Positions 2,836 through 50,167 of a stretch of 64,000 bases of DNA are shown here, piece after piece. The position numbers and the translations under genes were made by a program. The notes under the pieces were generated by a model that searched no databases, was not told the origin of the DNA, and saw only the letters and a program-made list of their open reading frames with translations. Origin of the DNA: Bacillota bacterium (GTDB lineage Bacteria; Bacillota; Ch66; Ch109); assembly GCA_050952625.1 (NCBI GenBank), contig JBMNLH010000008.1:10293-74292 (forward strand), given 5' to 3'. The stretch's first letter is position 1; each line of letters begins with the position of its first letter.

Positions 2836-3983
2836 GTCTATATAATGGTGTAAAAAGAAGTTGAGCCAAAGCTCATACCTCGGTTAGAATATAAGTACCA
2901 CCAAATACCAAACCGAGGAGGATGAACCATGGCTCAGTTTAATATTACAATAACCGAAGAACTTTTGCACGGACTTTTTTTATCAAACGGCAGGGATGAA
3001 GCATTTTCCAAGCTATTAGAGGAAATCTTCAACCAGGTACTTTTAGCCCAATCTTCAGAACAGATAGGCGCTGAGCCCTATGAGAGAACTGAAGAAAGAA
3101 CCGCATACCGCAATGGGTTTCGAGATAGACAAATGACTACGCGAGTAGGTACACTTACATTGCGTGTCCCCAGGCATCGAAATGGACAGTTCTCTACAAA
3201 GCTTTTTGCTCGATACCAGCGCAGTGAACAAGCGTTGGTGCTGGCTATGATGGAGATGGTCATCAATGGTGTTTCCACTCGAAAAGTTGAACTAATTACT
3301 GAAGAGCTATGTGGAAAAAAGTTTTCAAAATCGACCATATCAGAGCTATGTAAGAACTTAGATCCAATAGTAGAAGCATTCCGTACAAGGCCCCTGCAAA
3401 GCTATTATCCCTTTGTCATGGTGGATGCCATCTATGTAAAGGTGCGGGAAAATGGACGTGTACAGTCAAGAGGTATGCTTATTGCCATTGCCGTTAACGA
3501 AGATGGCTATCGTGAAATCATCGGGTTTCAATTAGCCAACAGCGAATCAGAAAGCAGTTGGGGTGAGTTCTTTTCTTCACTCAAGGATCGTGGGCTAAAG
3601 GATGTTCGCCTGGTTACCTCTGATGACCATAAAGGGCTGGTTAATGCTGTTAGAAAACATTTTCAAGGTGCTAGCTGGCAGCGTTGTCAAACCCACTTTT
3701 CCAGGAACATACTGGATCATACGCCTAAAGCATTACAAACGGAAATTAAGGAAGAACTGCGCCAGCTTTATGAGGCTGTAGACCTTGAGAGTGCTCGTAA
3801 AATCAGAGACCGCATTATCCAAACATATGTGGTCAAAGCACCAAAAGCCACAGCTCTCCTGGACGAAGCATTTGATGATATTACTGCTGTTCTTGCGCTA
3901 CCCCTGAAGCGGCTTGAACCCCTATTATTGGAGAATATACACTTAAAGCTTAAGCTTACATGAAATATAACGTTTTACCTTGA

Positions 3984-4131
3984 GCAACCGCCCTTGACAT
4001 GGGGGCCCCTGGTGTCCGTGTTTCTTAGGGCCGGCCAGGGCCCGCTGCAGCTAATGCTTTTGCGGCCCTTTGCCAGGGATAGGCTAACACGGACACCCTC
4101 CCCATGTAAAGGGTCTTCGATGAACGGTTGC
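3984..4131 (-). other. long hairpin with sigmaA-like boxes (sso-like), copy in IS3
   Basis: CCCTTGACATGGGG/CCCCATGTAAAGGG and GGTGTCCGTGTT/AACACGGACACC arms; minus strand TTTACA-18-TAGCCT. Confidence 0.7.
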
Positions 4132-5084
4132 TAGGCGACCATTTTCTTCTCTGTAATCTGGTTGCTCATAACAGCTTCATAATATTTAGCAGGTGCCATG
4201 TACCCTATGCTGCCATGCCGGCGACGATTGTTGTAATAATCCATGTATTCGCTGATGACTCTGTATGCATCTGTAAAGCTGGTAAACTCATTTCTGCTAT
4301 AGCATTCATCTTCTAATATAGAATGAAAGGACTCAATATAGGCGTTCATATTAGGACTTTTAACTGGTATTCTTTCGTGAGTTAATTTCCATTTCCAGCA
4401 TGTCTCTTCAAATATTTTAGCGGTAAACTGCGGGCCATTATCAGTCCTTATTATTGGAAGTTCCATGCCAGGCTTTAAATTGCGTTTATTAAGCGAATTT
4501 ATAAGTACTGCGCAGGCATCCTTAGCTGTAGCACTTAATCCAAGGTGATAGTCAATTACTGAACGGTCAAACACGTCTATAAGGGATAATTGGAAGAAGA
4601 ACCTGCTCATACCCTCAATGTAACCATACTTCAGGTCCATTTGCCAGTGTTGGTTAGGGGCAGTTACTTCATCTCGCTTTGCCAGTTTTCTCGGCCGGTC
4701 TAGATATATTTTTCTCTGAGGACGCAATACGTTAAGTTCTTTACAGAGCCGGTATGTTTTCTTATGGTTTATGATAAGCTGGTAATCCTCTTTCAGGGTT
4801 GCGTTGATTTTTTTATAGCCATAAGGGAAACCATCCCCGGTAACTATCTCTTTAATATATTCCTTAATTAATTCGTCAGAGATTTGCTCACCTTCTAGAT
4901 TTAATGAGTACTCTGATATCTTGCGCCCCGGTTTCTTCTTTGGTAGTTCCTGGTTAATAGCACTTATAGTTTCTTTGATTTTATGATAGTAGGTGGATGA
5001 AGCCAAGCCGACAGAGCTAAGGACCAGAGAAGCTTTATAGCCCTTATCTATCCACCTTTTAGCTATGGTAACCCTGTCGGCTAC
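4131..5084 (-). CDS. IS3 OrfB (DDE integrase core), -1 frame to OrfA
   Basis: WQMDLKY, IRTDNGPQF, NAYIESFH, YYNNRRRHGS; frame open back to the OrfA stop. Confidence 0.92.
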   Translation of the reverse strand, partial: VADRVTIAKRWIDKGYKASLVLSSVGLASSTYYHKIKETISAINQELPKKKPGRKISEYSLNLEGEQISDELIKEYIKEIVTGDGFPYGYKKINATLKEDYQLIINHKKTYRLCKELNVLRPQRKIYLDRPRKLAKRDEVTAPNQHWQMDLKYGYIEGMSRFFFQLSLIDVFDRSVIDYHLGLSATAKDACAVLINSLNKRNLKPGMELPIIRTDNGPQFTAKIFEETCWKWKLTHERIPVKSPNMNAYIESFHSILEDECYSRNEFTSFTDAYRVISEYMDYYNNRRRHGSIGYMAPAKYYEAVMSNQITEKKMVA

Positions 5085-5392
5085 CGAGGGTTTTGGATAT
5101 CCCTTAACTCTCTTAAAATAGCCAACTCTAATTCTTTATCAGCCAGAAGGCGTTTTAGCCTGTCATTCTCAGTACTAACTTCTTTAAGCTGTTTTTCCAG
5201 AGCTTTTTGGCGGTCATCTTTAACTTTAGGCAGTCTCTTTATGGAGCCGTTTTTTCGATATTTACTTAACCAAGTATGAATTGTATTAGCCGACATTTCA
5301 TGCCTGCGAGCTACCAAGGCAACGTTACCTGTTTCCTGGCACTCTTTTATAATTAATTCCTTGAATTCATCGCTGTATTGCTTGCTTTTCAT
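5081..5392 (-). CDS. IS3 OrfA (HTH + coiled coil)
   Basis: YSDEFK...VARRHEMSANTIHTW; slippery A_AAC_CCT at 5093-5087 just before the stop. Confidence 0.92.
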   Translation of the reverse strand: MKSKQYSDEFKELIIKECQETGNVALVARRHEMSANTIHTWLSKYRKNGSIKRLPKVKDDRQKALEKQLKEVSTENDRLKRLLADKELELAILRELRDIQNPR

Positions 5393-5681
5393 GAAAATCT
5401 ACCCCCTACTATTATGTTAACGTATTACACGTGCTTTCTCCAAATTTATTAGGGGGCTAGATAGCTACAAACGGTGTGGAAAGGTTGAATGAGGAAATTC
5501 GTCGTCGAGAGCGGGTCATTCGAATCTTTCCCAATGCTGCATCCGTCATCCGGCTCATGGGGGCTCTATTAATAGAGCAGGATGAGAAATGGCAGACCGG
5601 CCGTAAATACTTTGATATGCAGCTGTACTATCAAGTGCAGAATAAGGAATCAAAGTCTGGCACTGCTGCATAGAAAACGCA

Positions 5682-5842
5682 TTTATTCCACGGTCTGTTG
5701 ACAATGAGCCTCCCATGGCATGTTTTCAGGCATCAGGGCCTTCCCCCTTATCTTTGAGGAGAAGTCTTGCGCCTGGGTGGTGATGCCCGGCCAACAGCCT
5801 AACATGCCATGTTCTCATCGTCAACTGCTTTCGCGGCATAAA
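5682..5842 (-). other. long hairpin with RS_B-like motif and sigmaA-like boxes (ssoA-like), copy in IS256 #1
   Basis: Minus strand TTTATGCCGCGAAA-gcag-TTGACG-17-TAGGCT; arms GTTGACAATGAG/CTCATCGTCAAC and CATGGCATGTT/AACATGCCATG. Confidence 0.7.
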
Positions 5843-6084
5843 AACGCTTAGGCTATTGTCTCATTAGCTACCGTTTGATAACCGAGGTAATTTACACACT
5901 AATTTGGACTTGACTTCGCATAGTCAAGTCCAAAATAGTGTGTAATTTCCTCGGCAACCTACGTAGTGAAGATTTTGTCCTATCTATGCAAACATCCGTT
6001 TTAATCCAAGAATGTAAATAATTAAGAATGGAGAATGGAAATTATCAATTTCTCTAAAAGGTAAAGCAATAACTTAAATCAAAA

Positions 6085-6240
6085 GGCCGTTTATCGGAGC
6101 AAAGCGAAGACCCTTTATCATGGAGGAGCAGCCCGTGTTAGCCTATCTAGGCAGAGGGGCGTGCCTCTAACAACAATCCACTGGCCCGCTGCCGCTTCTC
6201 CGAAACACGGGCTGTAGAGGCCTCCATGTCAAGGGCGGCC
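6085..6240 (+). other. long hairpin with sigmaA-like boxes (sso-like), copy in IS256 #2
   Basis: CCCTTTATCATGGAGG/CCTCCATGTCAAGGG and CAGCCCGTGTT/AACACGGGCTG arms; TTATCA-18-TAGCCT. Confidence 0.7.
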
Positions 6241-6280
6241 GTGTGATAATTTTAGGTACGTAGCGTCGAGAATGAACACA

Positions 6281-7492
6281 TTAAGCCACGGCTGAATTAT
6301 TGGAAGCTTTTTTTTGCAGCACTTGGTAGTACAGGTCCATATCAAAATATTTACGGCCTGTTTGCCATTTCTCGTCCTGTTCCATTAGTAGTGCACCCAT
6401 CAGCCGAATCACAGACTGTTCATTAGGAAAGATGCGAATAACCCGCTCACGACGCCGTATTTCCTGGTTGAGCCGTTCCACTCCGTTAGTGGTGCGTAGT
6501 CTTTTTCGGTACTTTAGTGGCAGGATTAAAACGGCGGTAATGTCATCAAATGCTTCATCCAAAAGACATACAGCTTTCGGTGCTTTGGATTCGTATTTGT
6601 TGATAATCTTATCCCGGGTATCTCGGGCACTTTCAATGTCAACTGCTTCATAGAGTTGTCGTAAATCTTCTTTGATTTCCGGCTGGTGTGACTTGGGTGT
6701 CTGGTCCAACATATTTCTGGAAAAATGGGTTTGACACCGCTGCCAGGTGGCTCCCTGAAAATGTTTCTGTATAGCATTTACCAGTCCTTTATGATTATCA
6801 GAAGTGATCAGGTGGACACTTTTTAGTCCTCGTTCTTCAAGAGAACCAAAGAGTTCACCCCAACTGCTTTCAGATTCAGTGTTAGCTACATGAAAACCGA
6901 TGATTTCACGACATCCTTCTTTGTTTACACCGATGGCGATTAAGAGCCCCCTGGACTGTACCCGGCTGTCTTCTCGCACTTTCAGGTAGAGGGCATCCAC
7001 TATTAAAAATGGATATTGGTTTTCCAGGGGTCTTGTCCGAAAGGTGTGAACTAATGGATCTAGTTTTTTACATAAAGCTGAGACTGTTGACTTGGAAAAT
7101 TTTTTGCCACAAAGCTCTTCAGTGATGGATTCGACTTTACGGGTAGAGACACCGTTGACCACCATTTCCATCATGGCCAGGACTAATGCCTGTTCGCTGC
7201 GCTGATAGCGTTCAAAGAGTTCTGTGCTAAATTTACCGTTCCGATGGCGGGGAACGCGTAAATGTATTGTTCCAACCCGGGTGGTCATCTGCCGTTCCCG
7301 AAAGCCGTTACGGTAGCCCAGCCGTTCATCTGTTCTTTCATATGGGGCGGCACCAATTTGTTCTGCTGACTGCTTTAAAAGTACTTGGTTGAAGATCTCC
7401 TCCAGTAGTTTGGAAAATGCTTCATCCCGACCATTTGAAACAAAAAGTCCGTGTAAATGTTCTTCGGTTAGGGTAATGTTAAACTGAGTCAT
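6281..7492 (-). CDS. IS256 (Mutator-type) transposase
   Basis: RNGFRER, VDALYLKVR, TSDNHKGL, WQRCQTHF, TTNGVERLN. Confidence 0.97.
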   Translation of the reverse strand: MTQFNITLTEEHLHGLFVSNGRDEAFSKLLEEIFNQVLLKQSAEQIGAAPYERTDERLGYRNGFRERQMTTRVGTIHLRVPRHRNGKFSTELFERYQRSEQALVLAMMEMVVNGVSTRKVESITEELCGKKFSKSTVSALCKKLDPLVHTFRTRPLENQYPFLIVDALYLKVREDSRVQSRGLLIAIGVNKEGCREIIGFHVANTESESSWGELFGSLEERGLKSVHLITSDNHKGLVNAIQKHFQGATWQRCQTHFSRNMLDQTPKSHQPEIKEDLRQLYEAVDIESARDTRDKIINKYESKAPKAVCLLDEAFDDITAVLILPLKYRKRLRTTNGVERLNQEIRRRERVIRIFPNEQSVIRLMGALLMEQDEKWQTGRKYFDMDLYYQVLQKKASNNSAVA

Positions 7493-7562
7493 GGATTCAT
7501 TCCTCCCTCGGTTTGGTATTTGATAGGCACTTATATCTTAACCGAGGAAATGAATTTATGGC

Positions 7563-8303
7563 TCATTTTGTTTTTACACCATTATACGGACTTGATCGGC
7601 TCGCATTATCTTTGAGCCACTTTCGCCAAATCGGGTAATCCGGCACATATTCCCCTACTAGGTTCCAAAACTCTGGTGCATGGTTCATATACCGAAGATG
7701 GGCCAACTCATGCACTACCAGGTAATCCAATACCTCGGCCGGGGCCAAGATAATCCGCCAGTTCAGGTTAATATTGCCCTTGCTTGAGCAACTGCCCCAT
7801 CTAGTTTTTTGATCCTTGATGACCAATCGGTTGTATTTCAACCCCATAATCCGGGCGAAATAATCTAACCGTTCCTGAAAAACTCGTTTCGCCTGAACCC
7901 GATACCATTTATGCAGTGACTCTCTCACAATTTGCGGCCAGTCTTCTTGAGGAACAATGTTAGGCAGCTCCACCCAAAAACAGTCGCCGGTGAATTTAAT
8001 GGTTATCGTTTTTCCAGCCACAACCCGGGTAGACAGCAGGCAACTTCGACCCTGATAAAGAAAAGTCTCGCCTGTCACATGCTTTTTCTGCTGCTGCTGG
8101 TTTTGGCTCCGCCAATCCAGGACGTGCTTGAGGATCCAATCTCTTTTTGCTTCCACAAATCTCTTTGCTTCCGTGACAGTTACTCCCTGAGGTACAGAAA
8201 CCGTCACCTTGTCCTGCTTAATTCGAATATTAAGTCTTTTGGCGCGAGTACTTCTTCTAACTTCATACTCGATTTTGGTATTATTAACAATCAAGTGCTC
8301 CAT
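7563..8303 (-). CDS. M48/YgjP (DUF45) metal-dependent hydrolase; last ~12 aa read from the IS256 end
   Basis: KTRWGSCS, YLVVHELAHL, NHAPEFW. Confidence 0.9.
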   Translation of the reverse strand: MEHLIVNNTKIEYEVRRSTRAKRLNIRIKQDKVTVSVPQGVTVTEAKRFVEAKRDWILKHVLDWRSQNQQQQKKHVTGETFLYQGRSCLLSTRVVAGKTITIKFTGDCFWVELPNIVPQEDWPQIVRESLHKWYRVQAKRVFQERLDYFARIMGLKYNRLVIKDQKTRWGSCSSKGNINLNWRIILAPAEVLDYLVVHELAHLRYMNHAPEFWNLVGEYVPDYPIWRKWLKDNASRSSPYNGVKTK

Positions 8304-49980: not shown

Positions 49981-50007
49981 CCACGCCAAAATAAATGGCC
50001 AAAATCT

Positions 50008-50130
50008 ACTCCTTTCCAAAAGGGAGGCGCATCCGTTTCCGTCTGACCTGCCACAGCCATTAATGCACCCTGTCGGCCATCCTCCCATGAAACCGAAAAA
50101 TCGGTCTTTTAGGCTAGAATGGCTCGGAGA
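50008..50130 (-). ncRNA. Moco RNA motif (molybdenum-cofactor riboswitch, P3-containing)
   Basis: CUCCGAG...CCUAA...CAUGG, P3 GCCGACAG/CUGUGGC, GAAA tetraloop, GCCUCCC..GGAAAGGAG 3' end. Confidence 0.85.
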
Positions 50131-50167
50131 CAATATTAAATTGGGCATCGCAACCTATCAAGGTAAA

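Follow-up and report, generated by a model that had tools for sequence, protein, structure and literature searches.

Probable ssoA-type single-strand origins within IS3- and IS256-family insertion sequences of a Bacillota genome

Introduction

The question raised by this locus is why insertion sequences (ISs) with unrelated transposases carry what appears to be the same long hairpin in their 3' non-coding ends. The locus lies in a 64,000-nt stretch of contig JBMNLH010000008.1 of a Bacillota genome (assembly GCA_050952625.1), hereafter called the window. Within its first 8 kb, amid nested insertion sequences, one IS3-family element and two IS256-family elements (IS256#1 and IS256#2) each bear one such hairpin module. 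Coordinates are window positions unless another contig of the same genome (C1, C4, C5, C7 or C8) or another extracted locus (L-numbers) is named. A preliminary description of the window had regarded the hairpins as a selected, exchangeable structural module that acts as single-stranded DNA (ssDNA) rather than as an mRNA 3' element, and it missed their membership in a known class of DNA elements, the single-strand origins (ssos). As argued below from sequence and predicted structure, the modules are very probably ssos of the ssoA/palA type, the lagging-strand origin type of rolling-circle plasmids in Bacillota; what the window presents is a known class in a new, recurrent context and not a new RNA. 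The overall explanation favored here, to which a probability of roughly 0.6 is assigned, is that IS3 and IS256 elements carry, within their inverted repeats, an ssoA-type sso that may prime the complement of the circularised strand.

Location, fold and strand of the three modules

The IS3 module (3984..4131, minus strand) extends from the orfB stop codon to a point 74 nt short of the IS end, and the modules of IS256#1 (5682..5842, minus strand) and IS256#2 (6085..6240, plus strand) are likewise situated in the 3' non-coding ends of their elements. All three are internal to their ISs, in 3' non-coding tails of unusual length. In IS3 the module-sense strand is the minus strand, which is also the strand of orfB; it is the minus strand in IS256#1, where the transposase gene tnp is on the plus strand, and the plus strand in IS256#2, where tnp is on the minus strand. 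The module is thus sense to the transposase genes in IS3 and antisense to tnp in both IS256 elements, as had been described. Insertion of the ISs into a pre-existing palindrome was considered and rejected, because the modules lie inside ends that are common to all copies of the ISs.

Folding reproduced the three hairpins and their common layout at the places where they had first been noted. As RNA, the IS3, IS256#1 and IS256#2 modules have z-scores of -5.05, -3.84 and -6.18, with none of 200 shuffled sequences folding as well; as ssDNA of the module-sense strand, the corresponding z-scores are -6.49, -4.14 and -3.94, with folding energies under DNA parameters of -43.7, -34.5 and -32.9 kcal/mol. 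The modules are about 150-160 nt in length and form a long imperfect-palindrome hairpin as ssDNA, which is characteristic of ssoA/palA elements, and their G+C content is 0.53-0.61, compared with 0.35-0.46 in plasmid palA. The IS3 and IS256#2 modules share approximately 70% identity over 136 nt by BLAST, while the IS256#1 and IS256#2 modules have no mutual BLAST match at E<=1, which bears out the earlier remark that the IS3 and IS256#2 copies are closer to each other than the two IS256 copies are. The four motifs previously listed as common to the IS3 and IS256#2 copies are all present in their alignment, where six base pairs are changed on both sides. As MAFFT misplaced the IS256#1 copy, model-based alignments were used instead.

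Similarity to plasmid single-strand origins

Two covariance models link the modules to plasmid palA in both directions. The first, R1, derives solely from the IS3 and IS256#2 modules, which it scores at 173.8 and 183.1 bits, respectively, and all module searches reported here rest on this two-sequence model. With filters off, R1 finds the IS256#1 module at 28.6 bits (5686-5849), which is missed at default filters. Also with filters off, it identifies the palA place on the correct strand in five of six staphylococcal plasmid loci, at 15.2-24.5 bits (p908_2260, 24.5; pKH20, 23.1; pT181, 16.7; pSALNC1.6, 16.4; pC285_4, 15.2); the sixth, pE194, reaches only 6.2 bits. The palA place in these plasmids was set independently by BLAST with the pT181 region. 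The second model, R2, was built from the five plasmid palA loci found by R1 and nothing else. In the window it matches the IS256#1 module (33.5 bits, E 6.6e-5, 5683-5851, minus strand) and the IS3 module (24.0 bits, E 0.007, 3980-4133, minus strand), with no other match at E<=0.1. R2 also recognizes the modules of IS256 relatives (L078, 45.0 bits; L083, 37.8; L082, 32.8) and of IS3 relatives (L129, 35.2; L125, 26.2). A likeness to experimentally defined ssoA in both sequence and fold, and on the functional strand, is seen in five of the six palA loci with R1 and in two of the three window modules plus five relatives with R2. A search of the whole window genome with R2 at default filters returned nothing, which is counted as filter loss, since two copies are found without filters. 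A BLAST search of 72,556 plasmids with the IS256#2 module returned nothing; the relation to plasmids is visible only to structure-aware models.

The conserved boxes of ssoA are recognizable as well. The published RSB box is 5'-TTATGCCGAGAAAATTT-3' (PMC4598088), and IS256#1 and its relatives carry TTTATGCCGCGAAAGC, which is almost unchanged. In the model alignments, RSB is matched by degenerate versions in the IS3 and IS256#2 copies, TTCATCG... and TTTATCGGAGCAAAGCG. The IS256#1 type further carries ...GTGGAATAAATGCG, as in pE194, and its 3' flank GGAATAAATGCG is also found in that plasmid, and the GTGTTAGC...AACAC junction is common to pT181 and the window modules. The CS-6 box (TAGCGT), the proposed primer stop of ssoA, is present at the apex as TAGCGT in L023 and L024 and as TAGCGA in L021, and the apex of the IS3 copy, TTAGCTG, bears a weak likeness to it; nothing resembling the box is present in the two IS256 copies of the window. 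Overall, the modules share with the ssoA/palA elements of pT181, pKH20, pE194 and relatives the imperfect palindrome of about 150-160 nt with RSB at its 5' base, the succession of a stem, a bulge, a second stem that ends in GTGTT and an unpaired TAGC-type loop, the purine-rich 3' bulge followed by CCATGTC, the strand specificity and the reciprocal covariance-model matches. Plasmid ssoA, about 160 nt in length in pT181, is described as primed by RNA polymerase and working only on the leading strand in one orientation (PMC5703833), and origins of the ssoA/palA type are known to act solely as folded ssDNA (PMC5703833, PMC4595007).

Several features set the modules apart from plasmid ssoA/palA. 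Their setting is IS3 and IS256 elements on chromosomal contigs of Desulfotomaculia-like Bacillota, where no Rep gene is close by, they are G+C-rich, and the window copies preserve the CS-6 apex poorly. All window copies reside inside IS elements and none on a rolling-circle replicon, and they are therefore filed as ssoA-type modules outside the classical setting. The integrative and conjugative element (ICE) ICEBs1 is an earlier example of a mobile element that is integrated in the chromosome and carries a functional sso working in one orientation (PMC4595007). It is likened to the present modules by function and not by sequence, and it passes through ssDNA in rolling-circle replication and conjugation, unlike IS3 and IS256 elements, which are not known to need an sso. 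Comparison with Rfam produced no family matching the modules: at the gathering threshold, the only match in the whole window was a molybdenum cofactor (Moco) riboswitch elsewhere, and an E-value search of 3900-6300 gave only a chance mir-32 match on the IS-end palindrome.

Covariation and promoter-like layout

The earlier claim that pairing is kept while the stem sequences change is supported well beyond the window by an alignment of 23 distinct homologues; this alignment was fitted to the covariance model and hence leans towards structure. Within it, 94.6% of cells pair, 30 of 37 pairs are changed on both sides, and none of 500 shuffles reaches the observed pairing, slid controls being 35-46% paired. 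G:T pairs (52) outnumber A:C pairs (14), an excess which indicates that the fold favours one strand.

The 5' arm of the fold presents what looks like a promoter. In the first 19 rows of the alignment, which were tabulated for promoter boxes, a -35-like box is followed by the motif TANNCT after a spacer of 16-21 nt (16-19 nt in 18 rows and 21 nt in L040), and the -35-like hexamer is TTGACA in five rows and differs from it by one mismatch in five more. TANNCT starts at the last base of stem 3, its remainder being unpaired in the internal loop, and corresponds to the TAG(C/G)CT that had been noted opposite GAAAC. In the IS3 module, the promoter-like core as read from the sequence (4081..4110, minus strand) consists of TTTACA in stem 2 (4105-4110), 18 nt, and an unpaired TAGCCT (4081-4086). 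The IS256#2 module (plus strand) has TTATCA (6115-6120), 18 nt, and TAGCCT (6139-6144), and the IS256#1 module (minus strand) has the RSB-like TTTATGCCGCGAAAGC (~5827-5842), TTGACG (5819-5824) and TAGGCT (5796-5801). This layout is the form that would be expected of a predicted promoter existing only in folded ssDNA. The ssDNA promoter of plasmid F, named Frpo, offers a comparable picture by layout and not by sequence, and the window modules fit it with their -35-like box in a stem and their unpaired -10-like loop. In plasmid F, the folded strand is described as presenting promoter boxes to RNA polymerase, by which a primer RNA is made, and ssos of the present type are likewise described as folding into a structure that the host RNA polymerase recognizes as a promoter, with a short RNA serving as the primer (PMC4595007). 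The proposal that the module acts as ssDNA gains support from the homology to ssoA/palA, together with an orientation to the transposase gene that depends on the IS family. An attC-like site was considered for the GTTAGCC/GTTAGGC box and rejected: attC sites pair through R'/R'', while here the box pairs only via GTT and the rest is an unpaired loop.

Distribution in Bacillota and association with IS elements

The window genome contains three copies of the IS3-type module, two of the IS256#2 type and one of the IS256#1 type, each within a copy of its IS; the second IS256#2-type copy (C5:34884-35055) is 99% identical to that in the window. A divergent copy is situated at C1:1282708-1282835 (L014 1501-1628), about 170 nt from a truncated N-terminus of a DUF772-type (IS5/IS1182-like) transposase, and an IS110 transposase and a reverse-transcriptase fragment occur within a few kb of it. 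Of 150 further genomes from the phylum, 8 have matches to R1, and these belong to different families. A motif scan of 185,579 species genomes yielded 46 loci, 33 of which were confirmed by R1, all of them in Bacillota, including Sporotomaculum, Dethiobacter, Pelotomaculum, Desulfoscipio and several metagenome-assembled genomes (MAGs). The 13 unconfirmed loci, some in non-Bacillota bins, one beside TnpB and one beside DnaG, were treated as chance matches, of which about 16 were expected in the scan by a rough estimate.

The association with IS3 elements suspected from the window extends to these loci. At 24 of the 33 confirmed loci, in six genomes, an IS3 OrfB 80-96% identical to that of the window is encoded on the module strand and stops 3-8 nt short of the module. 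Four further loci (L038, L041, L046 and L056) have other IS3-type or rve pieces adjoining, and in L016 an OrfB remnant of 70% identity was detected by tblastn directly upstream of the module. Among IS3 relatives at 45-73% identity, the module was found in 2 of 29 (L125 and L129), in both cases downstream of orfB on the same strand. For IS256 relatives at 68-80% identity, an R1 match follows the tnp stop codon on the opposite strand in four of six loci. In addition, the IS256 relative L080 (79% identity) has at 120-350 a module of about 230 nt in total with intact RSB-type flanks and a much longer apex, which R1 missed; counting it, the module follows tnp in antisense in five of six IS256 relatives at >=68% identity, and model-based module counts are lower bounds. 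At 54-61% identity, 19 IS256 loci (four short loci having been left out of the scan) gave a single weak match, located elsewhere in its locus. The candidacy of L029 as an IS256-borne copy was rejected, the module being about 100 nt outside the inferred left end. The locus L046 (2629-3374), from a Desulfoscipio geothermicus MAG, has an IS3 orfA fragment with a module (163.7 bits) immediately after it and lacks orfB, with a second module (54.3 bits) about 240 nt away, and looks like a deletion derivative consisting of an IS end and an sso.

Two subtypes of the module can be distinguished: one, with a perfect RSB, is found in the IS3 relative L129 as well as the IS256 clade, and the other is shared by IS256#2 and the main IS3 clade. 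As each subtype is present in both IS families, the modules appear to have moved between them, in agreement with the earlier view of an exchangeable module. In other genomes, solitary copies are sometimes located near serine recombinases or repressors.

Possible role in copy-out/paste-in transposition

IS3 and IS256 elements transpose by a copy-out/paste-in route, in which a nick at one end is described as being followed by its joining to the same strand past the opposite end, and host replication as converting the resulting figure-eight into a double-stranded circle (PMC7780238, PMC3299598). A tentative proposal, to which we give somewhat less than an even chance, is that the sso of these ISs primes the complement of the displaced single-strand circle. 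Replication from the freed 3'-OH of the flank would copy the uncut strand and displace the circularised strand, which would then need a primer, and the sso on that strand would supply one. By homology, one specific strand of the module folds, once single-stranded, into the hairpin of about 150 nt, in which the lower stem has a double-stranded -35-like box (TTGACA-type) and the internal loop shows the unpaired -10-like TANNCT, with RSB at the base. Host RNA polymerase would read the fold as a promoter and make a short RNA that primes complementary-strand DNA synthesis, as in plasmids, and circle formation could thereby be independent of a full replication fork. It is conceivable, though we would not rate it as probable, that IS3 and IS256 elements of anaerobic Bacillota have domesticated a plasmid sso in this way, copy-out passing through a free single-stranded circle much like a rolling-circle replicon limited to one round.

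The orientation of the modules can be compared with what is known of the donor ends. In IS2, of the IS3 family, the right inverted repeat (IRR) is described as the exclusive donor (PMC3299598); with only this end as donor, the coding strand would be circularised, and every IS3-borne module has its sense on that strand. IS256 and ISCth4 are reported to be able to use either end as donor (PMC7780238), by which the antisense orientation of the module in IS256 elements is allowed and not predicted.

A number of observations count against the explanation by a priming sso. With either end of IS256 as donor, only half of the events could make use of a single sso, and the accepted copy-out model as presented in the two sources invokes host replication without the need for an sso (PMC7780238, PMC3299598). 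Neither an experiment linking an sso to transposition nor a description of an IS-borne sso was found in a literature search by paper listings and abstracts. The module is absent from 27 of the 29 IS3 loci at 45-73% identity, from 18-19 of the 19 IS256 loci at 54-61% and from L081 (77%); with most relatives lacking it, the module is dispensable. In the eight other genomes of the phylum, most of the nine matches are in ordinary intergenic DNA, and no transposase was detected by Pfam beside the module in eight of these nine loci, the remnant in L016 being recognized later by tblastn. No Rep or relaxase match to Pfam was present within about 8 kb of seven solitary foreign copies and of the C1 copy of the window genome (L114). 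As for the assignment to ssoA, the plasmid-based model R2 does not recover the IS256#2 module at E<=0.1, and the CS-6-like apex is weak or absent in the two IS256 copies of the window.

Several of these observations suit an origin of the module as a hitch-hiker, which we consider rather unlikely. An sso captured from plasmids or integrated elements, for instance by recombination at RSB or by redefinition of an IS end, would have no role in transposition and might persist as neutral cargo, or might give a host-adapted sso to a rolling-circle plasmid or conjugative element that receives the IS. RSB is described as a recombination site (PMC5703833), the sharing of each subtype by both IS families amounts to exchange, the module is missing from close IS relatives and also occurs on its own outside ISs, and an IS insertion near an sso is reported to have altered the host range of a rolling-circle plasmid (PMC12016507). 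However, the position and orientation of the module are constant within each IS family across independent lineages, compensatory changes maintain pairing inside IS lineages, and 150 nt of neutral sequence in a compact IS would be expected to decay.

It is improbable that the sso instead rescues ISs that arrive as ssDNA by conjugation or transformation, making the IS double-stranded early so that the transposase is expressed and the IS jumps before its carrier is lost. That ssos are described as doing exactly this for ICEBs1 and conjugative plasmids (PMC4595007), and that the module is patchily spread over many genera as horizontal movement predicts, would both fit such a role. The geometry, however, suggests that on a linear strand of an IS256 element the primer would grow in the direction leading away from tnp, and the sso would help only one of the two strands that might enter.

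A function as an RNA element, whether to terminate or insulate transcription at the IS end, to stabilise mRNA or, for IS256, to act as the promoter of an RNA antisense to tnp, is very improbable. The hairpins fold well as RNA too, and their -35/-10-like boxes could fire weakly on duplex DNA, but the orientation to tnp is opposite in the two families, no Rfam family matches, no T run follows the hairpins, and all of the conserved boxes are accounted for by homology to a type of DNA element whose function as ssDNA is known. Least probable of all is a self-inserted palindromic repeat of the miniature inverted-repeat transposable element (MITE) or repetitive extragenic palindrome (REP) kind that settled in tolerant IS ends: it would account for the imperfect palindrome, for solitary copies elsewhere and for the two copies each in L042 and L046, but the copies in the window genome are all in or beside ISs (six inside, one by a transposase fragment and no others), no target duplications were seen flanking the module, the whole length pairs and not just the termini, and the modules are homologous to plasmid ssos. 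The subterminal hairpins of IS200/IS605 elements and REP/MITE palindromes likewise represent hairpin DNA near transposon ends that acts single-stranded. They are short recognition sites of HUH transposases, in contrast to the window hairpins, which are set back from the IS end by at least 74 nt and share homology with replication origins, in ISs that use DDE enzymes (rve, Transposase_mut).

If priming of the circularised strand by the sso is true, the orientation of the sso would report the donor strand, and hence the donor end, for each IS family, and the module would be a marker predicting the transferred IS strand. The step from figure-eight to double-stranded circle is usually ascribed to "host replication" and is poorly defined, and copy-out/paste-in is used by most bacterial IS families. 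The fixed place and orientation of the sso in two unrelated transposase families make priming by RNA polymerase on a displaced single-strand circle a genetically testable hypothesis. In addition, the range of ssoA-type origins is widened from small Gram-positive plasmids and ICEs to insertion sequences, and for annotation, the assignment accounts for a class of hairpins in Bacillota genomes that are G+C-rich and "structured RNA-like".

Host insertion sequences and other features of the window

The ends of the host ISs were set by comparing three IS3 copies and two IS256#2 copies (on C8 and C5) of the genome. The IS3-family element (3910..5464, minus strand), with ends taken from the three genome copies, encodes orfA (5081-5392) and orfB (4131-5006) and is inserted in the tnp of IS256#1; Pfam matches to HTH_Tnp_1 on orfA and to rve, rve_3 and HTH_21 on orfB place it in the IS3 family. 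Target duplications of 4 bp flank the IS3 copies on C7 and C4 (AACT and TAAC), and none is present at the window copy. At the insertion site in IS256#1 (3905-3912 and 5462-5470), about 20 nt of IS256 sequence are missing in comparison with IS256#2. IS256#1 (~2836..5915, plus strand) has its tnp split by the IS3 element into two pieces (2929 to ~3909 and ~5467 to 5673), both of which match Transposase_mut (381 + 48 bits), and IS256#2 (5921..7598, minus strand) has an uninterrupted match in its tnp (6281-7492; 447 bits), both elements thus belonging to the IS256 family. Related IS256 ends, GxxCAAGTCC...TGTGTAA, are present in both.

IS256#2 abuts IS256#1 tail to tail, its right end being about 5-6 bp from that of IS256#1. 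At 5880-5955, the facing right ends and the intervening ~5-6 bp (TCGCA/T) make a palindrome of about 70 bp. The gap is as long as the spacer that results when, under an IS256-type transposase, an end attacks beside another end, so that the arrangement may be a frozen inter-element junction. On the other side, the left end of IS256#2 (7563-7598) overlaps the final ~35 nt of an open reading frame (ORF) for a YgjP-like metallopeptidase (7563-8303, minus strand), and the insertion probably replaced the natural C-terminus of this gene. Upstream of IS256#1, the region 1637-2835 contains a 188-aa ORF for a PemK/MazF-like toxin, which is extended at its N-terminus by about 50 residues, and, upstream of and overlapping this ORF, a 213-aa ORF without a Pfam match, which could be an unusual antitoxin partner of the toxin. 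Far from the modules, the Moco riboswitch is located at 49993-50141 on the minus strand and scores 50.4 bits against a gathering score of 36.

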